A stretch of DNA of 64,000 nt from Deltaproteobacteria bacterium (GTDB taxonomy: Bacteria > Myxococcota_A > UBA9042 > PHBI01): contig SBGO01000716.1 of assembly GCA_006226565.1 (NCBI GenBank), positions 307-64,306 of the forward strand, read 5' to 3'. The notes beneath the pieces were generated by a model, which saw only the letters and a program-made list of their open reading frames with translations, made no database searches and was not told where the DNA came from. Positions 12,893-64,000 of the stretch are shown here, in pieces; positions within the stretch are counted from its first letter, which is position 1, and each line of letters opens with the position of its first letter. A program made the translations under genes and the position numbers.

Positions 12893-13078
12893 CTCGGCCT
12901 CCCGAGCGTGACGGTAGCGCGCTTCGTCCCGACTTCGTCAAGCTCGGGAGCGGGCCGCAAAGCTTCGGGCCGGTGACGAGGCGTCGTCGTATCCGATATA
13001 GATGAGCAATGAGGTGCTTGGCGCCGGGAGCCGCGTCACGCGGTCGGACGACCGAGGCCCATAGAGGACCATGCAGCC

Positions 13079-46510: not shown

Positions 46511-46525
46511 ATCGTGGGTTGAAGC

Positions 46526-49187: not shown

Positions 49188-50648
49188 TCACCGCTTCTTT
49201 GATCGCTTCGCGACGATCGCCGCGTTGTCGTTGAGTCGCGCCACGAGCTGCCCGGTCGTTGCCTTGCTCACAGAGGTCACGCCGGCAGCGGCCAGCGCCT
49301 CGGTGATCTCTCGCGCCCGCACCGGGCGGTTCTCCGCGTAGGCTGACGCGGCGAGGTCCGCCAGCGCCTCCGCGACGGATTCCGCGTAGTTCCCCGGGAG
49401 CTCGGAGAGAACCGAAGACGCTTTGGTCTTGAAGTGCGTGAAGAGGCCCGGGTCGGCGCGAAGCCGATCTCCGCGATGGTTGACGGCCCACTTGCCGAGC
49501 CGCGAGCGCCGCGGCGCGTTGGCGTCGACCGCCCCGGACATCATGCCGCCCGCGAGCGACGTCAGGATCTTCGTTCCGAACCGCTGCTGCGCAGCGGCGA
49601 ACTCCGCGCCTGGGTCGGCCTTCCACCGCTCCTTCGCTGCCGGGTCGAAGGCCCAGGCGTCGACCTCCTCGACCAGAGCCCTGAGCGTACCGATGACCTC
49701 GGCCTTCGCTCCCTCTTTCAGGGCCAGCTCGGCTGCGCGAAGGAGCCAGCTCTTCGAGGTCTTCGCGATCGCACCCGGGCTCAGGTGAGCGAGCTTGTTC
49801 ACACTAGGGCTCGCCCCGAGCAGCGCGAAGCCGCCCTCGATGAGCCCCTTTCGGAAGCCCTCGGCGCCCCCGGCGGCGACCTTCTTCCAGTCGACCTTGC
49901 CGTCGGACACCAGCTCTCCGAGCACGGTGCCTCCTGCCTGAACAGCCCCGGCAGCCGTGCCGGCAGCCAACGTCCCCGCGATCGCACCGCCCGCCGTGCC
50001 AAGGACCGGCGCCGCGATGGCCGCGACCGCTGGGGCGGTGAGGATCGCCAGCTCGGCGATGGCGATGTCACGGACGACGGTCGCGACGGCCTCGGCGGTA
50101 GCGAGGTTGTCCGCACGGTGGCCGAGGTAGTCGCTGAACTCCTTCCGGAACCCCTGTCCGAACTCGATGCCCTTCTGGAGCGCGCGCAGCCCCTCGGGGA
50201 TCTTCCCTGCGGCGAGCAGGTGGTTCGCCTTCGTCAGGAGGGTGAACACGTTGTTCCACCGGGAGGCCTCCGGCGCCTTGCGCGCGAACAGCGTCCCGGA
50301 CTTGTACGCGAGCTCGTCCTGGTAGGAGCTTGAGAACCCCTGGAGGACGTGCGCCAGCAGCCGCAGGTTGCGGTCACGGATGCCCTCGAGCTTCGTTGCC
50401 TCCGAAGCCGGGTCCTTGCCTGACGCGGCTGGCTTCGCAGCATTCGCATTCCCCTGCCCTGCCGCCCCGCTCGCCGGCTTCCTCGACTGGTTGGGCTGCA
50501 GGTGCTCGGAAGCCTCGGCATACGTCATCGCACGCAGCTCCGGTCGCACCGGCCCGGCCATCGACTGTTGCGGCGGGACACACATGGGCGCGGAGCTCGT
50601 CTTGCGCTTGAGGATTGACGCGGGATCAAAGAAGGAGCTCATGTTCAC
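49188..50648 (-). CDS. Hypothetical protein with a central Gly/Ala-rich hydrophobic (glycine-zipper-like) segment
   Basis: No recognisable catalytic motif. Hydrophobic stretch AIAELAILTAPAVAAIAAPVLGTAGGAIAGTLAAGTAAGAV. Confidence 0.4.
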   Translation of the reverse strand: MNMSSFFDPASILKRKTSSAPMCVPPQQSMAGPVRPELRAMTYAEASEHLQPNQSRKPASGAAGQGNANAAKPAASGKDPASEATKLEGIRDRNLRLLAHVLQGFSSSYQDELAYKSGTLFARKAPEASRWNNVFTLLTKANHLLAAGKIPEGLRALQKGIEFGQGFRKEFSDYLGHRADNLATAEAVATVVRDIAIAELAILTAPAVAAIAAPVLGTAGGAIAGTLAAGTAAGAVQAGGTVLGELVSDGKVDWKKVAAGGAEGFRKGLIEGGFALLGASPSVNKLAHLSPGAIAKTSKSWLLRAAELALKEGAKAEVIGTLRALVEEVDAWAFDPAAKERWKADPGAEFAAAQQRFGTKILTSLAGGMMSGAVDANAPRRSRLGKWAVNHRGDRLRADPGLFTHFKTKASSVLSELPGNYAESVAEALADLAASAYAENRPVRAREITEALAAAGVTSVSKATTGQLVARLNDNAAIVAKRSKKR

Positions 50649-50703
50649 CTCGCGGCGCCCGGGGCCAGGCCACTCCGCAACATAGCCCGACTCCGCGACG
50701 ATG

Positions 50704-51312
50704 TTAAGGGGCGCGCCGCTGTCTCGGTGAGGCCACGTTCGGGAGGCGCTCGCCTCCTACGATCCACGGAAGCAGCCTGGCGATGTTCCTCGCGTCGTCA
50801 AGTGCGCGATGGTGAGCGCCCTCGAGCTCAAGGCCGACGAGGCGAAGCGCCTTCGCCATGCCGTAGCGCTTGCGACGGCCCTGCGCGGCGGAGAACACGT
50901 TCTTCAGGTTCATGTGCTCCAGCATCGGGTAGTCGACGCCGTGGAAGGCACAGTCCCGCCGGAGCTGCGTGTCGTCGAAGAGCCCCCACGAGCCCCAGAC
51001 CACGCCCCACCGCCCGACGAGCATCGCCTGGCGAAGCGACTCCATCGCCTCGGGGAACGCGGGGGCGTCGGCGAGCATCTCCTGCGAGATGCCCGTCAGC
51101 TCGGTGCAGAACGCTGTCAACGTCGGGTGTCGGACCGGCCGCACGAAGGTCTGGAACTCGGCCTCGGTCGTGAGCGTGCTCGCGCGAACGAGCACGGCGC
51201 CGATCTCGATCGTCTCCATCTCGTCGCGCGGCAGGCTCCCGTCGTCGCTCGTCGTCGCCTCGAGATCGATGACCAGGTAGTGCTTGACCTCACGCAGCTC
51301 GGGGCCGGTCAC
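50704..51312 (-). CDS. DEDDh-type 3'-5' exonuclease (DnaQ-like)
   Basis: Exo I motif [10 protein letters not shown] and Exo III motif [15 protein letters not shown]. The GTG start at 51312 overlaps the upstream ORF stop as GTGA. The long Arg/Gly-rich N-terminal extension in the ORF track is rejected. Confidence 0.65.
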
Positions 51313-51560
51313 AGCTTCTCCGCCAGCCCCGACGCGAGCATCGCGCGGACGAAGGACGCGGCCTTCTCGTCGTCCGTCGCCCCGTCGACCTCGAGGTCGA
51401 CGTCGTTCATCCGCCCTGCCTGGTCCACCGCCCAGTCGATGTACTCCGACAGCGTGCGCCGCTCCTGGCCGAACGCCAGGGCGTGCATCGACTCCGCGAT
51501 CTGCTTCGCCGTCCCCTCGAGCACCCGACCGTCCGCCGTCATCCGAATCCTCATCGCCAC
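51309..51560 (-). CDS. Hypothetical small protein
   Basis: Coding-like composition. Translationally coupled to both flanking genes. Confidence 0.35.
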
Positions 51561-52009
51561 ACCTCCGTCCTGTCACCGTGGTCCAACCAGTCACCGCTCG
51601 CGATGCGCGGCCGCCCGCGCACCTGCGCCGCCGACAGCAAGTAGGCCTGGACCTCCTCGCCGTCCTCGAGCCGGATCGGCCGCCGCTCGTAGAAGCCCGG
51701 GTGCCCCTCGAGGCGGTCGAGCGCCGCGAGCGTCCTCGGCCCGACCTCATAGACCTCCCCGATCACCGCCGTCGCGCCGCCCGGCACCATCGCCGGGAAC
51801 GCGCCCAAGCTCACGAGCTCGAACACGGCCTCGCTCCGCGCGCGCCCTCCAGCGCCAGCCGGAGATCGACCGGGTCGAAGCCCCTCGAACAGCTCCCCAA
51901 AGTAAGACAGCGTTGGCGGCGCAGCGTCCGCCCCCGCCTTCACAGATACGTAGGCGGGTGACGCCGACTGCCGTCGGAAGCCGCCGAAAAGCGCCAGCGA
52001 CCGCCACAA
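51551..52009 (-). CDS. Gamma-glutamyl cyclotransferase-like (AIG2/GGCT fold) protein
   Basis: ...[21 protein letters not shown]...[31 protein letters not shown] resembles the GGCT/BtrG core. The start is uncertain. Confidence 0.55.
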
Positions 52010-52042
52010 CGAGCCGGCGCTTCGCGTCCTCGCTCGCGCCCA

Positions 52043-52483
52043 TCAGGCGCCGCGCACGCTCGCTGCGGCGTCCTCCTCACCGAGGCCGGTCAGATACGCC
52101 GCGAGCGCCTGCCGGAACAGGTCCATCCGACTCTTGAGTCCGTGCCGACGCCAGACCTCGTCAAGCGCCGCCACCGTGTCGGTCGGCAGCCGGAGGGGCA
52201 GCACCTTGTGCTCGACCGCCGCCTCACCGGACGCGCGGCGACCGACTGGCCCGACCGGCACCCGCCCGCGGCGGGCCTCGCGGATCTTCCAGACCAAGTA
52301 GCGGGCGTTGCTGGACCTGGTGGGGCGCCCGACCTCCGCGAGGTAGCGGGCCTGCAGCTCCTCGACCGAGAGCTTCGTCAGCGGGGCGGCGGTGCCGGCC
52401 TCGGCGTCGAGGACGGAGGAAGCCGGGGCGGGCTGGCCGGTGGTGTCGGCGTGGTCGGAATGGCCTGGGACGGCCAGGGTCAT
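52043..52483 (-). CDS. Protein with a DUF2924-like N-terminal segment and a C-terminal ribbon-helix-helix-like region
   Basis: [33 protein letters not shown] resembles the DUF2924 N-terminus (compare [31 protein letters not shown] at 63138+). The C-terminus [39 protein letters not shown] is RHH-like. Confidence 0.45.
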
Positions 52484-52506
52484 CGTGGGTCTCCTGGATG
52501 GTGGTT

Positions 52507-52785
52507 TCAGCGAAGGGCGGCGAAGCAGGCGAGGTCGATGGCCCGCGGGTCACTCGTGACGAAGCTGAAGCGGCCCTCGCGCTCGAGCCAGGGCTGGACC
52601 TCGACGCGGTCGTCGGCGGTGACGCCGCCCGCGCGTGCGAGATCCTCGTCGTCATCGAGGTGCTGGCAGTCGTCGGGGTCGGCGGTGCGCTTGAGGACTG
52701 CGACGATGCGGACCTTGTAGCCGCGAAGGTAGCGGTGCTCGTCGCCGTGGTAGGTAGTGGTCGTGCCGATGACGCCTGCTGGCAT
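52507..52785 (-). CDS. Hypothetical small protein
   Basis: ORF with coding-like composition. No motif. Confidence 0.3.
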
Positions 52786-52900
52786 GGTGTCCCTCGTGGT
52801 GCCCGTTGCGAGGTCACGTTCGCTCTTGTGATCGGCGGGCAGCAAGCTGTGCTTGCGGTAATTGTGTATTAAAACAAGGTGTTGTGGTGGGGCGTGGCCG

Positions 52901-54784
52901 TCACCGGAGCCGCCGCGTGCGGAAGTCGAACCCTCGCGCGGGCACCCTTGTGCGAGCTGGCTCGTGCGGCGCCTCGGGCTCGATTGGCGACAGGCGCATC
53001 CCCATCGCGAGCAGGGACTTGAGCGCCGCCGTCGCGTAGACCCTGCAGTCGAGCGCCTCGTTGCGCCGGTTGTTCGGCTTCCACCAGAAGTGCACGGCGC
53101 GGCCGTTGCGGTAGCGGGTGCGGAGACGTTCGGCCGTCAGCTGCGCGAAGTAGACGTCATCGTTGTGCGGCGTGCTGAAGTGGCAGTAGCCCGGCCCCGC
53201 CTCCTCGACCTGGAGCCGCGCGTTGAGGAGCTCTTTCGCGGTGTCGACCCCGACGGCATAGACATCGAACTTGCCGTTCATCGGCCGCCCGGGACGGTTG
53301 TTCCAGATCGGGTGCGGCGAGTGCGCGGTGTTCGGGACACCCTTCGTGGCCCAGACCCGCCGCTGCCTGCGCTCGCGCGTGAACTCGCACACGCGCTGAG
53401 TCATGAACCCAGCGTCGACACACGTCGCCATGACGCTCACACCCTCCGGCACGTTGGGATGCGGGCGCCGCTCGAGCAGAAGCGCGTCGAGCAGCTGCCA
53501 GACCTCTTGCCCGCCCGGGTCGCCCGCGATCACGCGGTAGTCGAGCGACCACGACTCCTCGTCCACGCCCCAGCCGACGATCTCGACCTCGAGTCGGTCG
53601 CCCTGGACGTCGACGCCTGCCGTGACGAGGCAGACGCCAGCGGGGCAGGTCTTGCCGTAGTCCTCTACACGCCATGCGAGCGAGCTCGGGTCGAGGCTGT
53701 GTCCATCGGCCAGGTCCCAGGTCTCCGCGAGGTCAGTGTTCACGAGCACCCGCTGGAGCGCGGTGTCCTTTGTCCGCGTGGCCTTGACCCAGTCCGCCGC
53801 GATGTCGCCCCAACTCCGCCAGCCGTGCGGGCGGTACAGACCCGAGATGACGTAGCCGGTCACCTTCGGGTTGTTGCTCTCGGTCGTCGGCCGCCACTCA
53901 CCACGCTGCAGCATCCAGTCCTTCTCGTGCTGCTCGATGACGCCCTCGCAGTGTGGGCAGACGTAGGCCGCATCATGCGGCTCGCGGCCGAGCTCGCTCC
54001 ACACGACGTGCTCCCACTCGAGCGTCTGCATCGCCTCGCAGCGCGGACACGGGACGAAGTACTTCCGCTGGTCGGTCGGCGAGAAGCCGAGCTGCTGCTG
54101 CTCGGGCGTCCCGACGAACTCCGCCTCGATGCGCGACGCCCCGCGGACTGTCGGCGTCGAGAAGATCAGGACCTTCCGGTTCGAGAACGTCGCGGTGCGC
54201 TTCAGCGCGAGCGCGACCGGGTCGCCCTCGCCATCAACGTCGGCCGGGTATCCGTCGACCTCGTCGAGCACGAGCCGGCGGATGGCCTTCGACCGCAGCT
54301 CCGCCGCGCTGTTGGCGCCCGTTATGACGAGGAAGCCACCCGGGAACTGCTTGCGCGTCGTCGTCGTGCCGCCACGTCGCGACGTCTGGTCGCCGACGAG
54401 CTCCCGCAGAGCGGGCGTCCCGGAGCAGAGCGGGTTGATGCGGTCCCGGGCGTAGTCGCGCGCCGTGGACCAGGTCGGCTGGACCAGCAGGGCAGGGCCG
54501 GGGTCGAGGTGGATGGCGTGTCCCATCCAGTTCTCCGCGACCGAGGTCAGCCCGAGCTGCGCGCCCTTCATGATCACGACGACCTCGCACGGGTCCTGTG
54601 GCGAGAGCCGGTCCATGATCTCGCGGAGGTACGGCGTCCGTTCGGTGCGCCACGGCCCGGGCTCGGCGGACGTCGTCGGAAGCAGGCGGTGCTTGTCCGC
54701 CCAAGCGCTGACGGTCATGTCCGACGGCGGCATCAGGCCGGCCGCGTATGCCTTCAGACACTCCGCGAGCGGGTCACTGGGCAT
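52901..54784 (-). CDS. Phage terminase large subunit, lambda GpA family
   Basis: N-terminal ATPase region [19 protein letters not shown]...[24 protein letters not shown] and the GpA-type C-terminal nuclease region. Start chosen at ATG 54784, because the upstream part of the ORF is Ser/Arg/Pro-rich. Confidence 0.8.
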
Positions 54785-55307
54785 TGCGGGCGAGCTCTTG
54801 GAGGGCGGTGCGGATCTCGCTGTCCAGCCGGAGGCGCACCTCATGGACGTCGTCGAGGGCGGCGAGCTCGGCCGCGAGTCGGCTCGGGATCGCCATGAAG
54901 CGGGCGCGGAGCGCCGCGGCAACGTCGTACCAGCGCTTGGCGACGTCCTCGGTCTTCAAGTAGGTGCCGGACTTGGTCTCGTACTCGAGCTGGCGCAGGC
55001 GCGCGCGGTAGACGGTGTCGGCGGTCTTGGCCTGGGCGTAGGTGCCGGGCGCCGGGCCGGGCGGGGCTTGCGCCGTGCGCACGGGCGGGGAGGGCGGGAG
55101 CGCCTGCGCTCTGGCTTCGGGAGCAGCTGGCCTCTCAACGCGGGGAGCCCCGTCGGGCTCGCGACCGGCGTTCCACTCCGCCATGACGACGTCCGGATCG
55201 AGCGTCCCGTCCGCCAGCACGCTGAGGCGTCCCGCCTTCACCCGCTTGTTCACGGCCTGAGGCGTGACGCCCATGCGACGCGCCAGCTCCTTCTGCGTGA
55301 TGCCCAC
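54774..55307 (-). CDS. Candidate terminase small subunit (HTH DNA-binding protein)
   Basis: HTH GITQKELARRMGVTPQAVNKRVKAGRL. It lies immediately upstream of the large terminase. The GTG start at 55307 shares one base with the TAG stop of the methyltransferase gene. Confidence 0.45.
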   Translation of the reverse strand: MGITQKELARRMGVTPQAVNKRVKAGRLSVLADGTLDPDVVMAEWNAGREPDGAPRVERPAAPEARAQALPPSPPVRTAQAPPGPAPGTYAQAKTADTVYRARLRQLEYETKSGTYLKTEDVAKRWYDVAAALRARFMAIPSRLAAELAALDDVHEVRLRLDSEIRTALQELARNAQ

Positions 55308-56554
55308 TACAGGACCTCGCCCATCGGGAAGACGGCGCCGTCGCTCTCTCGGACGGCCTCGACGCCGGTGAGCTGGCACCAGCGCCGCACCGCGACGTCC
55401 ACGTAGCGCGGCTCGAGCTCCATCGCGAAGCAGCGGCGCCCGAGCTGCTCAGCGGCGATGATCTGCGTGCCCGAGCCGGAGAACGGCTCGTAGCAGACGT
55501 CGCCCGGGCGGGTGTGCTGCTCCATCGGGATGGCGAACGCCTGAACCGGCTTCGGCGTCGGGTGGTCGCCATCCTCGAGGTCGCGGACGCGCTCGAGACT
55601 CCAGACCGTCCCGCGCATCTTCGTGTCCTTGTTGCGGCGCGGCTTGTGAGGCCGCACCCAGCCCATGAGGCAGGGCTCGTGCTGCCAGGTGTACCAGGAG
55701 TACGTCAGGACGCCCGATGGCTTCGCCCAGATGATCTGCTGGTGGACGAACGCGCCGACCTGCTCCCAGACCGCCTGGAGCTTCGCGTGGTGGACAGACG
55801 CGTACCAACAGTACCAGGCCGCGTCCTCTCGGATGGCGAGCTCGCGCGCCGTTCGACAGAAGCGGAGCCAGAGGTCGTCGTTCCGTTCGGCGTCTGCGTC
55901 GTCCCACTCCTGGTCGTCGTAGCCAACGAGGTACGGCGGATCCGTGGCGAAAAGGACGGCCCGCTCGCCGGCCATGAGGCGCGTGACGTCCTCGGCGGAG
56001 GTGCAGTCGCCGCACAAGAGCCGGTGGTTGCCAAGAACCCAGAGGTCACCCGGCTGCGTGAAGGCTTCCGCCGGTGGGGCAGGGGGGGCGTCCTCGACGA
56101 CCTCGCTGGCGGGCGTCGACTCGGTGGCGAGCAGGTCCCGGAGCGCGTCCTCATCGAACCCGAGGTCGTCGATGTCGAAGCCGTCGACCTGCAGCGAGCT
56201 CATGAGCGCGGCGAGGACCTCCTCGTCCCACTCGGCGAGCTCGGCCGTCCGGTTGTCGGCGATGGCGAAGCCGGTCGCGGTCGTCGCGTCGTCGTCGACG
56301 ATGACCGCGGCGAGGTGACTCCAACCCAGAGCCCGGGCGGCGGCGAGGGTGCCGTTTCCCGCCTCGACCACCATCCCGGCGCGCCGCACGACGATGGGCT
56401 TGCGCTGGCCAAAGCGGACGAGGCTCGCCTTGATGGCGTCGAGGTTGACGTCGGGGTGCTTGCGCGCGTTGGCCGGGTCTTCGTGGAGGTCCGGCAGCGG
56501 CACGGCGAGGTGACGCAGCGGCTCGACGATGAGCGCCGTGGACTCCGTCATCAC
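55307..56554 (-). CDS. ParB-like nuclease domain fused to a DNA methyltransferase (DPPY-type N6-adenine/N4-cytosine)
   Basis: ParB N-terminal domain LRHLAVPLPDLHEDPANARKHP...GNGTLAAARALGW. Methyltransferase motif IV FATDPPY and motif I YEPFSGSGTQIIAAEQLGRRCFAMEL. Confidence 0.8.
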   Translation of the reverse strand: MMTESTALIVEPLRHLAVPLPDLHEDPANARKHPDVNLDAIKASLVRFGQRKPIVVRRAGMVVEAGNGTLAAARALGWSHLAAVIVDDDATTATGFAIADNRTAELAEWDEEVLAALMSSLQVDGFDIDDLGFDEDALRDLLATESTPASEVVEDAPPAPPAEAFTQPGDLWVLGNHRLLCGDCTSAEDVTRLMAGERAVLFATDPPYLVGYDDQEWDDADAERNDDLWLRFCRTARELAIREDAAWYCWYASVHHAKLQAVWEQVGAFVHQQIIWAKPSGVLTYSWYTWQHEPCLMGWVRPHKPRRNKDTKMRGTVWSLERVRDLEDGDHPTPKPVQAFAIPMEQHTRPGDVCYEPFSGSGTQIIAAEQLGRRCFAMELEPRYVDVAVRRWCQLTGVEAVRESDGAVFPMGEVL

Positions 56555-56864
56555 GCCGGCCCCATCGAGCCCTGCCGAGCGATCAACCCGATCAACCGAG
56601 CGCGGTTGATCAACCCGGATTCGGCTCCGTCACAAACGCGGGGTCGCGCTGCCCAAGGTACCCGACCCCCACCCCCCCCAGGGAGGACCCGTGGCCACCT
56701 GGTAGGCGGCTCTGCGAGGTGTCGTCCCCGAGGTTGGGCAAGTGGCCAGGTATCCATCACGTGTGCTCCTCGAGGCGCTCATGCGCCTTCACTCGAGGAA
56801 ACGCGGACCTCAGCGGCCTACTGGGACAGGCTTTTTTTCACATCCTGCTCCTGACCTCTCGTCG

Positions 56865-57138
56865 AGGTTCGGCATAGGTTCGGCGCCAGGTTCGGCAGGT
56901 GAACTTCCATTGATATCGATGTGTTGTGGTGAGGTGCGGAACCTGCGGAACCTCCATGCCACCGATCGCACGGGGGAACTTCTTTTCTTTCGCCGCACGC
57001 ATACGCGAAAAAAAAGTACCTGCGGGGCGGGGGGGCCTGTTGGAGGTTCCGCAGGTTCGGCACGCGATCCAAACGCGTTGAAATTACAGCGAGATGGTGT
57101 GCGGGGCTTGGCTGGGAGGTTCCGCACAGGTTCGGCAC
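56865..57138. repeat. Iteron-like array: 9 copies of AGGTTC(G/C)GCA in both orientations
   Basis: Direct copies at 56865, 56876, 56888, 57044, 57053, 57118 and 57129, and inverted copies at 56935 and 56944. The array is flanked by unusual A/T runs (56830 to 56846 and 57004 to 57020). It lies between the primase 3' end and the methyltransferase 5' end. Confidence 0.7.
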
Positions 57139-57196
57139 GAACGTGCGAGGCGGCTCGCCGCCATCGCCAGGGCTCGGAGTCCAGCGGGACCACCGC

Positions 57197-60118
57197 CTAC
57201 GCGTCGTCGCCGTCACCGATGGGTTGCAGCGCGTAGATCGCACGGTTGTTGCGGTCCCGTGGCATCGCAGCGATGCGGAGAACGCCGTAGACTCGGTCAC
57301 GCGCGTCGTGGAGGGCCCTGCCAAGCCGGGTCTGCTGTGACCGCGATCCTCCCTCGCCTCGGACGCTGGCCATCATGTCGTTCGTCTCGCAGAGCGTGTT
57401 CAGGGATGACACCGTGACCGGCGTCGAGCCGTGGCTCTCCCACCAGGCGCTCGTGAACTGTCTCCACGCGTCGCCTTCGATGTCGGCGGTCGCGTACATA
57501 TCGTCGAGGTTGCCGAGGAAGCCATCGATGCCGCACACGTCGAGGAGGCCCGCCATCTGCACGGCCCACTCTTCGAATGAGCCGAGGTCCGCCGACGGCA
57601 GCCTCGGTCGCCCCGCCGCGATCCAGGCCTGGATGAGCGTCAACGCCGCGTGCACGAGCTCGCTTCGGTGTTCTTTCGCCCAGCCCGTGATGGGCTTGTG
57701 TTTGTAGGTGCGGCCCATCCATGGGCGATCGCGGGCGGCGTCGATCCGAATGGGGATCGAACGTCGCGCAACGTCGACCGCCAGGGACGGGTTGTTCCCG
57801 GTGAGCATCCACAGCGCGTGGTTCGGGTGGGTCAGCATCCGGGTCCGTCCGAGGAGCCGATCGGTCCACTTCGTGGTGGTGAGCACAGCGGCGAGCGACG
57901 GCGCGGCGATCCTCTTATGCTCACGAGCATTGTCGAGAAGGATGATCGGCTGCGCGCGACCGAGCTCTGAGGTGATCATCTTGCGGATCTCATCGTCCTC
58001 TGAGGGGAGGGTGCGAGCCGCGCAGATGGTCCCGGTGACGACGACGGAGACGAGGTTGCAGAGGAGCCCCTTGCCCGTCCCCGCGGTCGGAGACTCCACG
58101 ACGTAAAGCGGGGTCGGGCCATCGATCAGTCGTCGCATGAACGTCTGAAGCACCGCAGCGATGGCGTGGGCACGGTCAGCCTGGCTGACGAACGGGAAGT
58201 CCACGAACAAGTCGTCGACGAAGATGGCCTTGGCTGCGTCGATCTCCGCTGCCGAGGGCTTCTCAGACACCTCGGCCAACAACAGGGTGGGGTCCGTCTC
58301 AAGCCAGAGCTGGTCACTCGCATGCAGGCCTGGTGCCGAGAGAATCCCACCGGCGCGGCCAAACACGGGCGTCGTGAGCACGGTGTCGACAGTGGCGAGC
58401 CCGGCCGGTGGGTAGGCGAGTAGATCCTTCGAGACGTCCTTTGGTGGCGGGACGGCGCGTTCGCCATGCTGGTTCTGCTCGATCCAGTCGGCCTCTCTCG
58501 CCAGAACGCCGTGCATCGCGTCCTCTGTGACCGCGACGACGGTCGCGGCGCCATCGGTCGGCCGGTCGAGGCGGACGAGGGACCTGCCGTGAACGAAAAG
58601 GGGGGCGGCGACGTTCTCAAAGGGAGCGCTGGCGGCGGCGTCGATGCGGCGCGCGTTCGCTGCGGTCAGGACATCCCGGGTCTCGTTCAGGACCTCTCGC
58701 AGCTGCCGGTCGCCGACAACGATCTTGGGTCGTTGTCCCGGGGCGGATGGAGCAGGCGTCGCTTGCCCCCTTGATTGCCCCCTGACTGCCTTGAGGCTCG
58801 CGTTGAGGGCGCGCTTCTTGATTCCGAAGCGCTGCGTGATCGCGTCGAGCACAGCGCCTGTGCGAATCGCAGAGCAACGCTCGAGCGCAGCGAGGACCGG
58901 CGTGAGCTCGCTGTCGAGCTCGTGTGGTGGTGTGTCTTGCGGGATGGCGGCGAGGAGGTACTCGGGGTACGGCAGCGCGTTCGCCATGACCTCTTGGAGT
59001 GCCTCGGGGCTACCAGTCGCGACCAGCTCGTTGACGTCGATCTTCTCCCTGTCTTCGGGACGCGGAATTGTCGCGATGTAGATCTCTCGCCCGGCGTCCC
59101 AGAACGCCGCCGCAGTGGCCCTCGCACCGGCCTCCCCGGAGCCGTTCGCCTCGGAGTCGTTGCAGATGACGACCCGCCGCGCGCGCTGTGTGAGCTTCAG
59201 GAGGCGTGGCACGTCCTTGATCCGGAACTGGATCGTCACCGGTGAGATGCATCGGACACCGGCCTGGCGCGCGCTGATGCAGTCGGTGACGCCTTCCGTG
59301 ATGAGAACCTCGTCGGCCCCCCGTGCAGCATCCTCCTCGTAGAAGTACTCGTTCTGCACCGTGGGCGAGACGTAGCTGTGCTTCTCGGAGTGGGTGAGGA
59401 GCTTCTTGTACTTCGCCTGCTCCCACGACGCCTCCGACGTGCGCTCGGTCCGCCGCGCGATGAAGTAGACGACTCGCCCCCCGCGCCAGTAGGGAAACAC
59501 GAGCCGGCTCTGAAAGAGGTCCTTGATGCCGCTCCTCGTGACCACGAACAGGCCGGTCTTGAGCGCGGCCTCGCGACTCGCCCCGACGGTCGTCGTCAGG
59601 TGCTCGAAGAGGCGGCCGTCCGCCCAGCCGAGCTGCAGCTCGTCGACGGTCTCGTCGGTGAAGCCGTAGTGCTGGCGGTAGTGCGTCTCCCGGATCTCAG
59701 GCAGGAGCGCGCGGTGGTAGTACGCCGCCGCGGCGGTGTGCAGGCGCTCGACCTCGCGTCGCTCGGACAGCTGCTCGACCTCGCGCGCCCACGACTCATC
59801 GTCTTCGTTCAGCCGGCGGACCCCCGCGCGCTCAGCGAGGAGGTGCACCGCGTGCATGAAACCGACTCGCTCGCGCTGCTGGACGTAGTCGAAGACGTCG
59901 CCGCCAAGCCCGCCGCCCCGGGAGAAGTCGTGCCAGGTCCGGGTCTCGGGCCAGACGACGAACGATGGGGTCTTCTCAGGGTGAAAGGGCGAAAGGCCCT
60001 TGAGGGTCGAGCCCGACTCTCGCAAGTCAACATCTGCGCCGATGACCCCTACGATGTCCGAACGCTCACGCACGAGCTCCACGAAGTCCCTGAACTGCGT
60101 GTTGCCGAGCGCGCTCAT
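57197..60118 (-). CDS. Phage/plasmid-type DNA primase (Zn-binding-like N-terminus plus TOPRIM) fused to a C-terminal P-loop domain (DUF3987/D5-like)
   Basis: LKGLSPFHPEKTPSFVV is a CHC2-like primase N-terminus that lacks the Cys residues. TOPRIM motif VLITEGVTDCISARQAG...VVICNDSEANGSG. P-loop YVVESPTAGTGKGLL. Start at ATG 60118, in an ATGA overlap with the upstream small ORF. Confidence 0.7.
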   Translation of the reverse strand: MSALGNTQFRDFVELVRERSDIVGVIGADVDLRESGSTLKGLSPFHPEKTPSFVVWPETRTWHDFSRGGGLGGDVFDYVQQRERVGFMHAVHLLAERAGVRRLNEDDESWAREVEQLSERREVERLHTAAAAYYHRALLPEIRETHYRQHYGFTDETVDELQLGWADGRLFEHLTTTVGASREAALKTGLFVVTRSGIKDLFQSRLVFPYWRGGRVVYFIARRTERTSEASWEQAKYKKLLTHSEKHSYVSPTVQNEYFYEEDAARGADEVLITEGVTDCISARQAGVRCISPVTIQFRIKDVPRLLKLTQRARRVVICNDSEANGSGEAGARATAAAFWDAGREIYIATIPRPEDREKIDVNELVATGSPEALQEVMANALPYPEYLLAAIPQDTPPHELDSELTPVLAALERCSAIRTGAVLDAITQRFGIKKRALNASLKAVRGQSRGQATPAPSAPGQRPKIVVGDRQLREVLNETRDVLTAANARRIDAAASAPFENVAAPLFVHGRSLVRLDRPTDGAATVVAVTEDAMHGVLAREADWIEQNQHGERAVPPPKDVSKDLLAYPPAGLATVDTVLTTPVFGRAGGILSAPGLHASDQLWLETDPTLLLAEVSEKPSAAEIDAAKAIFVDDLFVDFPFVSQADRAHAIAAVLQTFMRRLIDGPTPLYVVESPTAGTGKGLLCNLVSVVVTGTICAARTLPSEDDEIRKMITSELGRAQPIILLDNAREHKRIAAPSLAAVLTTTKWTDRLLGRTRMLTHPNHALWMLTGNNPSLAVDVARRSIPIRIDAARDRPWMGRTYKHKPITGWAKEHRSELVHAALTLIQAWIAAGRPRLPSADLGSFEEWAVQMAGLLDVCGIDGFLGNLDDMYATADIEGDAWRQFTSAWWESHGSTPVTVSSLNTLCETNDMMASVRGEGGSRSQQTRLGRALHDARDRVYGVLRIAAMPRDRNNRAIYALQPIGDGDDA

Positions 60119-60360
60119 CCTGCGTCCTCGTACTGCGTCGCGAGGTCCAGGAGGGACACGATCGCGGGGTGCCGCTGTACTCCAGCCGCTGTCGCGAGGG
60201 GGACGCCTCGGGCTCGCCGGTATGCGCGCTCGAGCCCCGCAGCGACACGGCGGATGGTCTCGTCGTCGGTGCCCTGGACGGCGAAGACGCCGCCCAGCAC
60301 GAGGACGACCTCGCGGAACATCGACGCGAGAGGGTCTCGGGACATGGTAGGGTCGTTCAT
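60115..60360 (-). CDS. Hypothetical small protein
   Basis: Coding-like ORF translationally coupled to the primase gene. Confidence 0.3.
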   Translation of the reverse strand: MNDPTMSRDPLASMFREVVLVLGGVFAVQGTDDETIRRVAAGLERAYRRARGVPLATAAGVQRHPAIVSLLDLATQYEDAG

Positions 60361-60432
60361 GAGCGTGCTCCTCAGGGGTGTGCCCTCGTCTGGGGAGGAA
60401 ACGCGACCTCCAAGGGGCTGAGTGGGACACGT

Positions 60433-61167
60433 TCACGAGGTCCGCCGATACCGTTGCTGGACCTTCCGCTTGGCGCGCTGAAGACGCTTCCGGGCCGCCT
60501 CGTGGGAGACGCCCAGCCGCTCGGCCATGCTGCGCTGGCTCTCGTCATAGATGAGGCAGCCGATGACGAGGTCCGCGTCGTCACCGACCACGTCGGCGAG
60601 TCTCCCGCGGAGCGCCCGCACGTCCTCGTCGGGCTCGAGGCGAATGATGCCGGTCGTATCCTCGGTCGCGACCTCAATGTCAGGCATGTCGGCGCGACGC
60701 TTGTCCTCGTCCCACCGGCGTTTGAGGCCGTCACACAGGTCGCGGGAGACGTTGCGGACGAGCGTGGCGGCGACCCGGTTGACCCGCGTGAGGTCCATCC
60801 TGTGGACCGCTTCGAGGAAGCGGGTGCTGAGCTCGGAGACGAGGGCCTCGGGCTCGCCGGGGAAGTCTCGTCGGCGACGCCGGTGGATGGCGTCGAGTCC
60901 GGGCCAGAGCCCGAGCCAGAGCAGCGTGCGGGCTTGCTCAGCCCGAGGACGGTCGCGGCTCTGCGCCACCTCGATGAGGGAGGCGTAGATGGCGTCCTTC
61001 TCGTCGCGGTCGCCCGTCGGGTCGTTGAGGTACGTGACGAGCGCGGTCGCGCATTGGAACCGCGATAGGTGGTCGTGTCTCTGCAGCTCATCGAACCGCG
61101 ACTTGGATCTCGACGGATCGACCGAACGCTCGAGGCTCTCCTTCAGAGCCTCCCAGGAAGCGCGCAT
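60433..61167 (-). CDS. Sigma-70 family (ECF-like) RNA polymerase sigma factor
   Basis: C-terminal region 4 HTH SQRSMAERLGVSHEAARKRLQRAKRKV and a region-2-like segment. Confidence 0.55.
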   Translation of the reverse strand: MRASWEALKESLERSVDPSRSKSRFDELQRHDHLSRFQCATALVTYLNDPTGDRDEKDAIYASLIEVAQSRDRPRAEQARTLLWLGLWPGLDAIHRRRRRDFPGEPEALVSELSTRFLEAVHRMDLTRVNRVAATLVRNVSRDLCDGLKRRWDEDKRRADMPDIEVATEDTTGIIRLEPDEDVRALRGRLADVVGDDADLVIGCLIYDESQRSMAERLGVSHEAARKRLQRAKRKVQQRYRRTS

Positions 61168-61271
61168 GACTTTCCGGCCTTGGGGCCGGGCGTCATGCGC
61201 CTCTCAGGGGCCTCGTCAGGGCGTCTCGCGCCTCTGGTGAGTTGTGTGTCGGCGCCGATGGGGCGCCGCGC

Positions 61272-61514
61272 TCAGCTGCGGCGTGCGGGCTCCGCGGCGG
61301 GCGCCGGGTACTCGTTCAGCGTCTGGCAGAAGCGACACCGGGTCGTCGCCGGCAGCCCGACGATGTACTCGTGGCCGCGCGCGAACCGGACGTGGAGTCG
61401 GCTGCCGCGCTTGCGAGCGAGCAGCGCGTGGCAGCGCGTGCAGCGCCACGGGGCTTCGTCCGCTCGGACCTTGTTGATGCGGACGCTCGGTGGAGCCTGT
61501 GGGATCCTTCTCAT
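61272..61514 (-). CDS. Small zinc-ribbon protein (CxxC...CxxC), Com/Ogr-like
   Basis: CTRCHALL...CRFC pairs. It sits in a phage-like regulatory position. Confidence 0.45.
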   Translation of the reverse strand: MRRIPQAPPSVRINKVRADEAPWRCTRCHALLARKRGSRLHVRFARGHEYIVGLPATTRCRFCQTLNEYPAPAAEPARRS

Positions 61515-61604
61515 GGGGCCTCCAAGCCGCCATGGAAGGCGGCGTTGTTAACTACCCCCGCAGCATCCGCACGGGTGGGACCCCACGAAATTCCTCATCG
61601 AGCA

Positions 61605-61679
61605 CCGGTGACTAGTCACCGCTGTGTGGTGAGTAGTCTGGCAGCGAAGCTGGTCGGGACAACAATGCTGTAATTACAG
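61605..61679. promoter_or_regulatory. Two perfect palindromes in the intergenic region: CGGTGACTAGTCACCG (61605..61620) and GCTGTAATTACAGC (61666..61679)
   Basis: Exact palindromes of 16 bp and 14 bp upstream of the Zn-ribbon/sigma/primase leftward operon. Confidence 0.35.
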
Positions 61680-61789
61680 CGCATTGCAATGATGGGCGTG
61701 ACGGCGTTCGAGTTCTGTTCACCTGACACGGGTACATCGCTACGCACCAGCGAGCGGTCCCGTAGGACGCGTTCAGGATGCCCCCAGGA

Positions 61790-62656
61790 TCAGAACCGCT
61801 TCGGCGCGCGGTACTCCTTGAGCTTCGCCAGCGCGGCGTCCGAGAGCGGGCCAGGCTCCCATGCCATGAGCGGCCACGGTCCCGGCGCCGGCAGCAAGTG
61901 GATTCGCTCAGGAGGCAGCAAGGGCTGCTTCGTGTGTCGCTGTCTGAACTCAAGCATGAAGCGCTGCCAGTTGGCTGCCGCGGAAAGAAAGGTGAACAGT
62001 CGGATGGGACTCAGTGGACCCGGTCCCGGCAGCGCCTGCAATCGAGCCTGCATGGCGGCGAAGATGTCCGCATGGAGCATGTAGCTGAGCGTGGCCGCCA
62101 GGTGAGCGACCGGCGCATGCGAACTCCACGCCTTTCGAATGTCCTTTTCGTTCTTGTGCAGGTCGCTGTGGGACTTGGCGAGCCACTCGACGAGGTGCAC
62201 AGCCTTGTTGACGCTCGCCTCTCCTCGGTCGGCGTGGTGCAACGCCATCCGCCGGATCATGTCCAGGATCGTGCCAGCGGTGGCCCAGTCGCGGGACCGC
62301 TTTTCCGCGAACGCGAGCATCGTTGGCAAGCTGTCCGCGAAGGCCACAGCGACGGGGCCTCCATGGGCCTCAAACCGTGCCTGAGCCGATGCACGAGCCT
62401 CTGCTAGCTCCTCACGGAGGCGCTCGGCTGCGGCTCTGTCACCGTTCGCCTCGAGCTTCGCAAGAACGGAGGCGACGATCTCTGCCGAGAAGTCCAAATC
62501 TCGGTGGAGGGCGCGAACGTCCAATGCAGCTTGCGCCGCCAAGAAGGCGTGGCGTGTCACGTCGTCATCTGGCCACGTCAAGTAGGCGCCGATGATGTTG
62601 CCGGCCGCTGAACGGCCAGTGTCTGTGGTGAGGTCGCCGAGTTCGATTGCCGCCAT
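61790..62656 (-). CDS. Hypothetical protein
   Basis: Coding-like 288-aa ORF. No motif recognised. Confidence 0.4.
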   Translation of the reverse strand: MAAIELGDLTTDTGRSAAGNIIGAYLTWPDDDVTRHAFLAAQAALDVRALHRDLDFSAEIVASVLAKLEANGDRAAAERLREELAEARASAQARFEAHGGPVAVAFADSLPTMLAFAEKRSRDWATAGTILDMIRRMALHHADRGEASVNKAVHLVEWLAKSHSDLHKNEKDIRKAWSSHAPVAHLAATLSYMLHADIFAAMQARLQALPGPGPLSPIRLFTFLSAAANWQRFMLEFRQRHTKQPLLPPERIHLLPAPGPWPLMAWEPGPLSDAALAKLKEYRAPKRF

Positions 62657-63137
62657 GGTGTCCGTCCGTCCTTGATGCTGCAGTCGGATGTACCGTAGCG
62701 CGTCGCCATCGTTCAGGCAGTAGCCGGGAAACGCTCTTGTTTTTTCGCGCGACGGCGCGCTGTCCCATTCTCGGGCCCGGCCCTGCGTTTCCTCGGCAGT
62801 TCGTCAACGCCGGAGGATGGCATGGTCCCGATTCAACCTGGGCAGCAGAGCTCGAACGGTCCTTCGCCACGAAACCCCGATTCCGTCCGCTCCGCCCGCG
62901 ACGAAGTCGCCGACGTCCTCGCCGAGGCCCTCTGGAGCTTGATCTGCAGCCGCCGCGGTCTCGAAGGGCAGGGCGGAAGCCGCCGGAAGACCCGGACGAC
63001 CACGACGCGCCACGTCTCGGCCTCACCGCAACCTGTTGAAACACATGCGCTCTGAGACTTGCCTCCGCGCGGAGACGACGCGTCCATGCGCCCACGACGA
63101 GGCGCACGGTGCGCCCCGGGACACCAGGGAGCACCCC

Positions 63138-63683
63138 ATGACAGGGAAGCAGAGCGAGGGCGCGAAGACGCGCCGCGAGATCGCCGACCTCACGCAGCAG
63201 CTGGCGGCGCTGCGCGAGATGACCGTGAACGAGCTCCGTGAGAAGTACCGCGACGTCTTCGGTGAGCCGAGCCGCTCGCGCAACAAGGACTACCTCCGGA
63301 AGAAGGTGGGCTGGCGGATCCAGGAGCTGGCCGAGGGGGGACTCTCCGACCGCGCCAGCAGCAAGATCGAAGCGCTCACGGCGGACGAGCCGCTGCGGTG
63401 GAGGAAGCGGCGCCGCCTGACCGAGCCCACCGCCCACGCCACCGCATCCGACGCGACCGCAGCTACGACGCGTGATCCCCGCCTCCCGGAGCCCGGTACC
63501 GTCCTCACACGCGAGCACGACGGCGTCGAGCACACCGTCACCGTCCTCGACGGCGGCTTCGAGTACGAGGGGCAGCGCTTCAAGAGCCTCTCGAAGGTCG
63601 CCCGCGTCATTACAGGCACGAACTGGAATGGGTTCCTGTTCTTCGGCCTCAAGCGCCGGACGCCGGGCGGGGGCACCACGTGA
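63138..63683 (+). CDS. DUF2924-family protein (the usual partner of large serine recombinases)
   Basis: [32 protein letters not shown] and the C-terminal ...[21 protein letters not shown] match DUF2924 conserved regions. The start is taken at ATG 63138. Confidence 0.7.
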
Positions 63684-64000
63684 GGGGCTTCGGCACAGCG
63701 CTCACGCAGCCGAAGCGGTGCGCGATCTACACGCGCAAGTCGACCGCGATCGGCCTCGAGCAGGAGTTCAACACGCTCGATGCCCAACGGGAGGCGTGCC
63801 TGGCGTACATCCAGCGCCAGGAGCACTGGACGACGACGGACGTCCGCTACGACGACGGTGGCTTCACCGGAGCCAACATCGAGCGGCCCGCCTTCCAGCG
63901 GTTGCTCGAGGACATCGACGCGGGGAAGGTCGACATCGTGGTGGTCTACAAGGTCGACCGCCTCTCCCGCTCGCTCCTCGACTTCGCCCGTGTGATGGAC
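63680..64000 (+). CDS. Large serine recombinase, N-terminal catalytic domain (3' end outside the window)
   Basis: [10 protein letters not shown]...LDAQREAC...[20 protein letters not shown] resolvase motifs. The GTG start overlaps the DUF2924 stop as GTGA. Confidence 0.8.

Follow-up and report, generated by a model that had tools for sequence, protein, structure and literature searches.

A bounded, capsid-less mobile element with its own terminase in a myxobacterial genome, a candidate PICI-like phage satellite

Gene content and boundaries

The window (the whole stretch of DNA analyzed, 64,000 nucleotides) contains part of a bounded mobile element of 13.7–18.5 kb, integrated in a myxobacterial genome; outside this block it consists of a defense island and host genes. 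The element was followed rightward beyond 64 kb on L001, a public contig that matches the window without a single difference across 10,863 nt. The features are as follows, with positions past 64,000 given as window equivalents.

49188–50642, minus: orf484, 484 aa, last co-oriented gene, at the variable cargo end (gene call, identical contig)
50704–51312, minus: DEDDh 3'–5' exonuclease (KapD-like), 202 aa, accessory (gene call)
51309–51554, minus: 81-aa gene with a 4-bp overlap with each neighbor (gene call; GC3 0.93)
51551–52009, minus: GGACT (gamma-glutamyl cyclotransferase-like) accessory gene (Pfam GGACT 1e-18; PHROG 2520)
52043–52483, minus: RHH protein with DUF2924-N-like motif and CopG-type C-terminus (Pfam RHH_1 3e-5)
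52507–52785, minus: p92, conserved 92-aa protein after TerL, where gpW-like and portal genes normally sit
52901–54784, minus: large terminase TerL, lambda GpA type, 627 aa, intact
54774–55379, minus: small terminase TerS, N-terminal HTH (PHROG 57 terminase small subunit, 1.8e-35)
55307–56554, minus: DNA methyltransferase, N6/N4 type, weak ParB-like N-terminal domain
56570–56700, minus: candidate cos region, in the primase–methylase gap upstream of the packaging genes
56865–57136, no strand: candidate replication origin, in the primase–methylase gap, nine GCSGAACCT iterons in both orientations
57197–60118, minus: primase-helicase-like fusion, 973 aa (Zn-ribbon, DnaG core, Toprim, C-terminal P-loop half)
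60115–60360, minus: p81, conserved small protein overlapping the primase start (gene call)
60433–61167, minus: sigma-70/ECF-like regulator, 244 aa
61272–61514, minus: four-cysteine zinc-ribbon protein, 80 aa (Cys25, 28, 60, 63)
61790–62656, minus: p288, 288 aa, first gene of the long leftward operon
62822–63055, plus: p77, small ORF upstream of DUF2924 (tblastn ortholog)
63138–63683, plus: DUF2924 protein, 181 aa (Pfam DUF2924 8e-47; exact-sequence gene call)
63680–64000, plus: large serine recombinase, N-terminal part (Pfam Resolvase 9e-20)
Ending at 65751: p157, 157-aa recombinase partner, after the recombinase
Between p157 and tRNA-Asn, minus: p352 and p88, small genes with no assigned function
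67642–67717: tRNA-Asn
From 67866: RNase J, then GTPase, ThiE, and PrmC

The complete serine recombinase has 533 residues, ends at window-equivalent position 65281, and matches Resolvase, Recombinase, and Zn_ribbon_recom. It shares an operon with the DUF2924 gene and the 157-aa partner. The DUF2924 stop codon overlaps the recombinase GTG start (GTGA, 63680–63683), and the two genes are predicted to be translationally coupled, as proposed in a preliminary description of this DNA. Right of 64 kb, the remainder of the recombinase is followed by p157, two small genes, tRNA-Asn, and housekeeping genes. Leftward, the block abuts a host FGE-sulfatase gene (paralogs are present), with the defense island farther left. 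The bounded locus is free of portal, capsid, tail, and lysis genes, and tblastn searches of L001 (window-equivalent 53,138–73,683) found no portal, capsid, sheath, or tube homologs; the earlier statement that the window holds no capsid or tail genes was confirmed. Since TerL lies on the minus strand, head genes would be expected to its left, where accessory and then FGE-sulfatase genes are found.

p77 is 72% identical to a 78-aa gene of the metagenomic relative L002, has another ortholog in L255, and matches no family. p288 is a near-orphan with only three homologs in 5.8 billion proteins (itself, L002 at 85%, and L255 at 50%); its dN/dS is 0.24 and its AF2 model (pLDDT 45) is uninformative. 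The 80-aa protein has orthologs in L002, L255, and L010-type loci and matches no curated family; only its CxxC...CxxC pattern is seen, and the label "Com-like" finds no database support. The ECF-like sigma assignment was upheld by TIGR02937 (5e-8, under the curated cut-off), PHROG 1740 sigma factor (4e-8), and Sigma70_r4_2 (4e-4). This gene has the highest evolutionary rate among the core genes (dN/dS 0.61).

At the opposite end, the RHH gene is the last one common to related elements (orthologs in L002, L252, L253, and Corallococcus L089; 456 clusters family-wide). DNA similarity to L002 ends at about 52070, and beyond the RHH gene lies a slot whose cargo varies. For the GGACT gene, correctly recognized before, the gene call gives 91 aa; a start at the TTG codon at 52009, which would yield 152 aa, is plausible. 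GGACT also adjoins the RHH module in Corallococcus element L089. The 81-aa gene has no family match. The exonuclease domain is secure (Pfam RNase_T 1e-24; NCBIfam KapD 6e-25; PADLOC DEDDh 3e-17), but its length is 202 aa and not the 348 aa first given; the 348-aa ORF overlaps GGACT and crosses the frame with GC3 0.93, which belongs to the separate 81-aa gene preceding it. The block is co-oriented as described and continues farther left, to orf484, and the 92-aa, RHH, 81-aa, and 288-aa genes must be added to its original list. orf484 could fall inside or outside the element. It is missing from L002, and searches of Pfam, PHROG, NCBIfam, and PADLOC gave no match to it. Its AF2 model (pLDDT 54) is all-helical with a disordered N-terminus, and a capsid or portal fold is absent.

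Packaging and replication modules

TerL contains both lambda GpA domains, as first proposed (Pfam GpA_ATPase 1e-86, 1–247 of 247; GpA_nuclease 8e-84), and the motifs KGAQLGLTS73, LVLDEVD171, and GVDVQGD390; the 673 aa previously reported is replaced by 627 aa. The PHROG 57 match bears out the suggested HTH small subunit, for which a 201-aa start is preferred over a 177-aa call, as the shorter version truncates the HTH. In the proposed ParB–methyltransferase fusion, the methylase is well matched (Pfam N6_N4_Mtase 1e-19; PADLOC MTase_II 7e-86), whereas the ParB-like N-terminus gives only weak hits (Pfam ParB_N 0.0078; TIGR00180 1.4e-4).

The candidate cos region comprises, in order, a G-run, GGTACC (first base 56662), a conserved segment of ~50 nt, the palindrome GGTTGATCAACC, and four GGTTGATC repeats (56581–56615). 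The segment is conserved in L002, L252, and L253 and with phage relatives, and an nhmmer profile of it matches 56604–56662. Contigs L253, L091, L254, L006-8, and L003/4/92 start within ~1 nt of the GGTACC column, representing at least four lineages and at least eight assemblies, the capsid-less L253 among them. A contig start lies just upstream of TerS in 43 of 136 family contigs. Such coincident starts could be assembly breaks at the G-run or a mosaic junction and not physical ends.

The primase fusion matches Zn_ribbon_DnaG (Pfam, 1e-18), DNAG_N, Toprim, and TIGR01391 (5e-46). Its C-terminal half bears GTGKG680, ILLDNA726, and LTGNN772, in agreement with the TOPRIM primase/P-loop fusion described previously; the columns holding G680/G682/K683 and D729/N730 are invariant in an alignment of 29 homologs. 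Orthologs of the overlapping p81 occur in L002, L255, and L009-type loci. The window contains 14 matches to GCSGAACCT against 1.9 expected (0 of 100 shuffles reached 14), nine of them in the candidate origin, where they flank an A/T-rich tract (56975–57020, GC 0.46). The equivalent place in L002 has the same iteron layout with a different iteron sequence. The iterons thus co-vary with the primase between the two elements, implying continued replication function.

Related elements and phages

Four further metagenomic elements (L002, L252, L253, and L335; TerL 71–90% identical) have the same capsid-less junction, in which TerL is followed by small ORFs, a p92 ortholog, and the RHH gene; in phages it is followed by a gpW-like gene and the portal. 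The p92 orthologs are 50–64% identical (52% in Corallococcus L089), and RHH follows p92 wherever the contig reaches, that of L335 stopping within p92. Because the contigs of L252, L253, and L335 are short, it is the conserved junction and not full boundaries that defines these three as capsid-less. Flanking cargo differs among the window, L002, and L252. Pairwise TerL identity among the five elements falls to 62%, and retention of the junction across such diverged elements in different contexts indicates that the capsid-less state is old. The NJ tree does not resolve the capsid-less TerLs as monophyletic (bootstrap 33–42%, with a portal-bearing pair nested).

Portal follows TerL in 91 of 99 loci of this terminase family. 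The nearest phages (L003, L006, L091, and L254) also have this order, and relatives with TerL at or below 68% identity are ordinary phages, those at 61–68% being of the kind with a lambda-type portal. Outside these lineages, about 8% of GpA terminases have no downstream portal, one through an IS91 insertion, so some capsid-less cases may be remnants.

All ten genes shared with L002 are intact (dS 0.34–0.86), and TerL (dN/dS 0.14) and TerS (0.17) have the lowest ratios among them. The five capsid-less TerLs are all intact, with dN/dS of 0.14–0.38, matching phage TerLs. This is the opposite of the terminase pseudogene in a fixed, syntenic module that the preliminary description had named as evidence against its reading.

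The backbone of primase, DUF2924, serine recombinase, p157, p92, and RHH occurs terminase-free in Corallococcus and Myxococcus, and the same slot carries other terminases elsewhere (Terminase_6 in L009; two Terminase_3 genes in L256), suggesting that packaging cassettes are gained, lost, and replaced. There are also full phages of the type that runs recombinase, primase, methylase, TerS, TerL, portal, with backbone and gene order as in the element (Acidobacteriota L029, L031, and L082; IMG/VR contigs of ~25–61 kb). Defense-like cargo is found nearby in two relatives: TIR and NACHT genes in L252 and AbiEii in L255.

Comparison with known satellites and interpretation

The PICI core consists of an integrase, regulators, a primase-replicase, TerS, and accessory genes (PMC10085698), and the layout of the element matches it. 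Like PICIs (SaPI type, SatelliteFinder, PMC10085698), the element is small (<20 kb) and integrated, lacks structural and lysis genes, and runs from integrase through divergent regulators, primase-replicase with iteron origin, and TerS to accessory genes. Unlike PICIs, it adds a large terminase and a methylase, replaces the tyrosine integrase by a large serine recombinase accompanied by DUF2924 and p157, lacks an AlpA, MerR, or Stl regulator and any recognizable capsid-morphogenesis gene, and resides in Myxococcota. To our knowledge, cfPICIs are the sole described satellite family encoding TerL together with TerS, as the element does; however, they also encode capsid, head–tail adaptor, and connector proteins, none of which the element has, and steal only tails.

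With satellite P4 and cos-type SaPIs (e.g., SaPIbov5) the element shares a primase-helicase fusion adjoining the origin, the proposed cos packaging into helper capsids, and a unit much shorter than the genome of the putative helper. Those satellites carry only the helper's cos and use its terminase, whereas TerS and TerL are both encoded by the element, in which no homolog of sid, psu, delta, or ccm was found. Lambda-type packaging (cos, Nu1, and gpA) resembles the element in its two GpA domains, HTH TerS, and candidate cos upstream, and TerL is 47% identical to that of AcaML1 and 44% to that of Wolbachia WO. In WO, too, a recombinase is paired with DUF2924 (PMC10299305). Lambda-type phages, AcaML1, and WO are complete phages with gpW and portal after TerL, where the element has p92, RHH, and cargo. 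Vibrio PLE, unrelated to the element in sequence, likewise integrates by a serine recombinase. Its origin, packaging site, and packaging genes are in the same order, and it has no TerL of its own (PMC11417361).

On balance, the locus is probably an integrated phage-derived element that acts as a PICI-like phage satellite, with TerS, TerL, and cos and without capsid genes. An unlikely alternative is an immobile remnant of a temperate phage of the recombinase, primase, methylase, TerS, TerL, portal type, from which the genes for head, tail, and lysis have disappeared; the surviving genes would be intact through recent loss or host co-option of some of them. The complete phages with the same gene order and the portal-less GpA loci elsewhere are in its favor, and att sites, an excised form, and a circular form were looked for without being found. 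However, in five elements with TerLs up to 38% different, p92 and RHH take the place of the portal, and the capsid-less state is old while every TerL remains under purifying selection. The co-varying iterons, the kept cos-like site, and cargo that varies among members, as in active mobile elements, likewise disfavor the degraded prophage that was one of the three options first offered.

It is quite unlikely that an integrative element captured a methylase–TerS–TerL–cos cassette for uses other than its own transfer, which could include blocking the packaging of invading phages (defense) or cos-dependent transduction of adjacent host DNA. The terminase-free backbones, the exchange of terminases in the same slot, and the defense-like neighbors in L252 and L255 would fit such a capture. 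Yet self-packaging requires just such a full TerS, TerL, and cos set beside the element's own origin, no known defense system was recognized in the element, and interference and self-transfer can coexist in known satellites (PMC11417361). The remaining option, an intact prophage whose replication-packaging arm is this block and whose structural genes lie just past 64 kb, had only the phage-like gene content in its favor and is refuted by the flanking sequence. On one side, the end of the recombinase is followed by three small genes, tRNA-Asn, and host genes; on the other are accessory genes, FGE-sulfatase paralogs, and the defense island, with no structural genes between.

The satellite/PICI-like reading is therefore the best supported of the three first offered, although the element departs in part from the PICI definition and from that of cfPICIs. 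From its sequence, we infer that the element is packaged and depends on a helper. Induction, for which a helper phage is the probable trigger, would lead the recombinase to excise the element; the primase-helicase would start replication at the iterons, and the DNA of the element would be modified by the methylase. The element-encoded TerS and TerL would then recognize and cut its cos and pump the DNA into procapsids of a putative helper with a lambda-type portal, which would also supply tails and lysis. No capsid-size-redirecting gene is recognizable in the element, and the two AF2 models are uninformative in this respect. The unit is about one-quarter to one-third of the related 57–61 kb phage genomes, pointing to packaging as multimers or in capsids of altered size. 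Having no virus-shell genes, the element most likely spreads by stealing shells from its putative helper phage.

Boundaries and gene content of the element

The locus was extended to the right by an exact-sequence look-up of the DUF2924 protein, which retrieved the Logan contig SRR8389942_197 (L001). Over 10,863 nt this contig matches the window exactly, and it reaches 9.7 kb beyond it. A search with the primase traced the source to an NCBI MAG labelled Deltaproteobacteria bacterium (locus tags EP329_...). The preliminary description had raised the possibility of structural genes past 64 kb. The sequence there holds the remainder of the serine recombinase, an overlapping 157-aa gene (p157), two small minus-strand unknowns and tRNA-Asn, followed by host genes for RNase J, a GTPase, an acetyltransferase, ThiE and PrmC, and no head genes. 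Because the large terminase (TerL) gene is read from the minus strand, any head genes should lie on its left. That side is occupied by tightly packed genes for p92 (proteins are named by length), a ribbon-helix-helix (RHH) protein, GGACT, an 81-aa protein, the exonuclease and a 484-aa ORF (orf484), to which the co-oriented block continues and which ends at 49188. The block is convergent on an intact FGE-sulfatase gene, and no structural phage gene occurs at window positions 1–44 kb, which are taken up by the defence island and host genes. The features referred to here are:

13013–14455, plus strand: second large serine recombinase (Resolvase, Recombinase, Zn_ribbon_recom), at the edge of the defence island
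43988–49135, plus strand: two tandem paralogs of 840 and 869 aa, with proprotein-convertase P-domain and C-terminal FGE-sulfatase, forming the left host flank of the element
67642–67717, window-equivalent (L001 14505–14580): tRNA-Asn(GTT), lying between RNase J and the right end of the element, towards which its 3′ end points

Host genes flank the element at either end, and it encodes no portal, capsid, tail or lysis proteins; this refutes the reading of the locus as one arm of a larger prophage. Pfam and PHROG yielded no match to capsid, head-tail adaptor or connector genes among its ORFs. When the portal, capsid, cement, sheath and tube proteins of two portal-bearing phage relatives (L003 and L006) served as tblastn queries, no match was obtained on L001, which overlaps the window from 53,138 to its right edge; for the genes left of TerL (49,188–52,900), coverage came from the Pfam, PHROG and NCBIfam scans. 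The element measures at least 13.7 kb (RHH gene to p157) and at most 18.5 kb. Between the boundary zones there are no direct or inverted repeats above chance matches of ~13–16 bp, and no duplicate of the tRNA-Asn 3′ end was found at the opposite end of the element. This is usual for serine integrases. The recurrence of GGACT beside the RHH gene in terminase-less elements, together with the tight operon spacing, suggests that the stretch from GGACT to orf484 is cargo rather than host DNA.

Genes were chosen by third-position GC (window GC ~68%) and checked against gene calls on the identical public contig. Domain searches confirmed the RNase_T/DEDDh exonuclease, GGACT, TerL, methylase, primase fusion and sigma-70/ECF-like protein listed in the preliminary description. 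The exonuclease had been given as 348 aa and is in fact 202 aa, with a separate 81-aa gene upstream (third-position GC and gene calls). The proposed ParB–methyltransferase fusion is an N6/N4 methylase with a weak ParB-like N-terminus, and the Zn-ribbon is an 80-aa, four-cysteine protein for which the databases do not support the label Com-like. Conserved genes absent from that list are those for p92, RHH, p81, p288 and p77.

TerL, whose corrected length is 627 aa, is of the lambda GpA type, as had been proposed, with both domains present at full length (Pfam; GpA_ATPase 1–247 of 247, GpA_nuclease 2–286 of 294). The ATPase and nuclease motif columns are invariant in a 10-sequence alignment, and all are present in the window protein. 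The candidate small subunit is a TerS with an N-terminal HTH (PHROG 57, 1.8e-35). At the right end, the integrase is a large serine recombinase of 533 aa with its N-terminus inside the window, carrying Resolvase, Recombinase and Zn_ribbon_recom over its full length (precomputed Pfam); the stop codon of DUF2924 overlaps its GTG start at 63680–63683 on the plus strand, in agreement with the GTGA coupling described earlier. The primase is of the DnaG type and is joined to a P-loop half; a candidate iteron origin lies immediately downstream. Its motifs are EGVTD275, GTGKG680, ILLDNA726 and LTGNN772, and columns G680/G682/K683 and D729/N730 are invariant across 29 homologs. Sequence searches of solved structures with TerL and the C-terminal half of the primase returned no matches.

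No Pfam or PHROG match to an AlpA, MerR or Stl-type regulator adjoins the integrase; in place of these are the sigma-like protein, the Zn-ribbon protein and the orphan p288. PADLOC matches in the element were limited to generic DEDDh and methylase hits, with no known defence system among them, and Rfam gave no RNA families in 48–64 kb. AlphaFold2 models of orf484 (pLDDT 54) and p288 (pLDDT 45, three-sequence alignment) were too poor for fold searches. From its size orf484 had been suspected of being a portal. That reading was rejected because the protein has no family match and is predicted to be helical and of low complexity, including a hydrophobic stretch rich in Gly and Ala.

Elsewhere in the window, a large defence island spans 5966–37917. 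It encodes a bpMoxR AAA protein (MoxR–vWA–beta-propeller system), a 1221-aa TIR-SLOG-CHAT protein, a 1894-aa DEAD+MZB(DUF1998) helicase, a Schlafen/AlbA_2 protein, GmrSD, a 1581-aa Eco57I/MmeI-type methylase and a SNF2 helicase, and its last four large genes look DISARM-like. The position of the second serine recombinase at the island edge suggests another integrative island in the window; no DUF2924 partner was detected for this recombinase.

Recurrence of the capsid-less junction and selection on the shared genes

The missing head module is unusual for this TerL family: among relatives of the window TerL with at least 2.5 kb of downstream sequence, a portal is recognisable after TerL in 91 of 99 loci. 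The nearest portal-bearing relatives (L003, L006, L091 and L254) have TerLs 61–68% identical to that of the window, and share the order TerS, TerL, gpW-like gene, Phage_portal_2, capsid and cement protein; sheath and/or tube genes follow in L003, L006 and L091, where the contig is long enough. Among deposited phages, those nearest by TerL are AcaML1 (47%) and Wolbachia WO (44%).

The contig L002 derives from another sample. Its TerL is 90% identical, and between recombinase and TerL it aligns colinearly with the window (79% DNA identity). As in the window, TerL is followed by small ORFs and the RHH gene instead of a portal; beyond RHH the two differ, L002 carrying a radical SAM protein and a 1250-aa protein. 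The same junction is found in L252, L253 and L335 (TerL 71%, 72% and 77% identical). An ortholog of p92 is present in all five capsid-less elements and RHH in all except L335, whose contig stops within p92; none of the five keeps the gpW-like gene. A further copy of the left arm, L255, has p157, the recombinase and DUF2924 on one strand and p288, Zn-ribbon, sigma, p81 and primase on the opposite one; AbiEii lies beyond this arm. Of the relatives characterised, the five with TerL identities of at least 71% are all capsid-less, and those at 68% or below are all phages. In a neighbor-joining tree the capsid-less TerLs received bootstrap values of 33–42%, and a single origin was not resolved.

A remnant prophage would also lack head genes, and this is considered an unlikely explanation here. 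All ten genes shared with L002 are intact at dS values of 0.34–0.86, the most constrained being TerL (dN/dS 0.14) and TerS (0.17). Across the five capsid-less elements TerL dN/dS is 0.14–0.38 with no internal stops, the same range as for phage–phage and phage–element TerL pairs (0.22–0.38). Such selection is hard to square with a decaying remnant.

Candidate replication origin and candidate cos site

The primase and methylase genes are separated by a 646-bp gap that contains nine copies of GCSGAACCT within 272 bp. The motif occurs 14 times in the whole window against 1.9 expected, a count reached in none of 100 shuffles. These iterons lie in both orientations, flanking an A/T-rich tract (GC 0.46). 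The corresponding position in L002 shows this arrangement too, with GCGGGAC(C/G)T or GCCGGACCT as iterons instead, and the two primases are only 68% identical. Differing iterons within a common layout are the pattern expected if an origin co-evolves with its initiator. A called 231-aa ORF in L002 (7447–8142), between primase and methylase, overlaps both the iteron and A/T-rich origin and the cos-like segment, and is probably a spurious gene call.

Nearer the methylase lies a conserved segment comprising a G-run, GGTACC, ~50 conserved nucleotides, and the palindrome GGTTGATCAACC with GGTTGATC repeats. Contigs from different samples and assemblers (L253, L091, L254, L006/L007/L008 and L003/L004/L092) all start within ~1 nt of the GGTACC column; one of these, L253, is of the capsid-less type. 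Among family contigs with a left end, 43 of 136 begin just far enough upstream of TerL to accommodate TerS, resembling the lambda order cos, Nu1, A. The GGTACC-containing segment is a candidate cos, at window position 56,662 on the minus strand. The coincident contig starts could instead reflect assembly breaks caused by the G-run or by a mosaic junction. Matches to a profile of the segment are confined to the close TerL clade: neither the profile search of the collected loci nor an exact scan of IMG/VR with the cos core gave matches outside it, and the terminase-less relatives are therefore without this cos.

The contig L005 begins with an Illumina adapter remnant (CAGACGTGTGCTCTTCCGATCT; positions 1–22) fused directly to phage sequence. 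It starts just past the palindrome GGGTTGACACGTCAACCC, at a point 64 nt into L003, to which it is otherwise identical; this may represent a second fixed DNA end or a palindrome-induced artefact.

The wider family and its relation to known satellites

Full-length relatives of the primase fusion, ~60% identical, occur in Corallococcus, Myxococcus and many Myxococcota MAGs, and travel with DUF2924, the serine recombinase and p157. This backbone is found in four forms. The first comprises complete Acidobacteriota phages and IMG/VR contigs of ~25–61 kb, several of them 57–61 kb, with the order primase, methylase(s), TerS and GpA-TerL; a portal comes next wherever the contig passes TerL, and a capsid gene also in L031 and L265. 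In the second, larger phage-like loci of Myxococcota have other terminases: Terminase_6 occurs in L009, an S78 protease in L090, and the IMG/VR contig L256 (11683–14848) has two tandem Terminase_3 genes (567 and 451 aa) in the slot of the GpA TerL. The third form consists of the capsid-less GpA TerL carriers (the window element, L002, L252, L253 and L335). The fourth lacks a terminase, as in Corallococcus L088 and L089, and keeps the p92 and RHH module and the GGACT/Amidoligase_2 accessory block.

Positions 1–2200 of L088 and L089 show the same terminase-less element in two Corallococcus strains; the L088 copy has a truncated Amidoligase_2 gene with two tyrosine-integrase genes after it, suggesting that a second element has inserted into the first. 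A primase fragment near RNase J in L079 was dropped as most likely host dnaG. Among other GpA loci, the IMG/VR contig L211 (2396–6522) has TerL directly followed by DUF2924 and a serine recombinase in place of a portal, and further portal-less loci continue with DUF4325 and DUF900 (L099), DUF932 (L236) or an IS91 transposase (L120). The 4.72-Mb genome of Magnetococcus marinus MC-1 encodes at least eight distinct GpA TerL paralogs, 47–49% identical to that of the window, and M. massalia several more, indicating a multi-copy prophage or element family.

The published PICI core consists of an integrase, regulators, a primase-replicase, TerS and accessory genes, with no structural genes (PMC10085698). 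The layout of the window element matches this core in its integrase, primase-replicase, TerS and accessory genes, and in its absence of capsid, tail and lysis genes. It differs in adding an intact GpA TerL to a core that has no other packaging genes, in having a serine recombinase where PICIs usually have a tyrosine integrase, and in lacking AlpA/MerR/Stl regulators and capsid-morphogenesis genes. Like the window element, cfPICIs encode both TerL and TerS; to our knowledge they are the only described satellites with a TerL. However, cfPICIs carry capsid and head-tail joining genes, which the element lacks. With P4 the element has only the logic of primase-helicase plus origin in common: psu, sid, delta, alpA and a tyrosine integrase were not detected by Pfam or PHROG, and the element has its own terminase, whereas P4 and cos-SaPIs carry cos and no terminase. 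The order of ori, pac and packaging genes is shared with PLE, which has no TerL (PMC11417361). An intact tailed prophage would have portal, major capsid, tail and lysis genes adjoining its terminase, and the locus has none of them. A DUF2924 gene beside a recombinase has been noted in passing in Wolbachia WO (PMC10299305); literature searches found mentions of DUF2924 only in three Wolbachia papers and no functional study of it, and no Myxococcus elements of this kind.

With modest confidence, the window element is interpreted as a phage satellite. The serine recombinase would excise it, DUF2924 and p157 being candidates for accessory or directionality factors; the primase-helicase-like protein would replicate it from the iterons, and its own methylase would methylate it. 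Its TerS and TerL would then recognise and cut cos and package the DNA into helper procapsids, with tails and lysis supplied by the helper. At 14–18 kb, the unit has roughly one quarter to one third the length of the related phage genomes (57–61 kb), so multimer packaging or capsid-size redirection would be needed; no capsid-size redirection gene is recognisable in the element. That the locus is instead a captured terminase cassette used for interference or transduction seems improbable.

Described satellites borrow the terminase of a helper (P4, PLE and cos-SaPIs), redirect it via their own TerS (SaPIs), or encode a whole head (cfPICIs), and we know of none described from Myxococcota. An element that brought TerS, TerL and cos yet no genes for a capsid would hijack its helper in a way different from these. 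It is tentatively suggested that the window element is the first recognised member of an undescribed Myxococcota satellite family placed between PICIs (TerS only) and cfPICIs (TerS, TerL and capsid), with a full terminase holoenzyme and its own cos, commandeering the empty procapsids of a helper. This family would be part of a wider DUF2924/serine-recombinase/primase set that swaps packaging cassettes (GpA, Terminase_3, Terminase_6 or none). Automated tools would call such loci “incomplete prophage,” masking mobile carriers of variable cargo, which in the relatives includes TIR, NACHT and AbiE genes. The relatives found span full 57–61 kb phages, capsid-less terminase carriers and terminase-less elements, so that two questions become directly testable: how satellites originate from temperate phages, and what part is played by DUF2924, the uncharacterised partner of serine integrases. 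If the interpretation is true, they would form a natural series of satellites arising from, and exchanging modules with, temperate phages.
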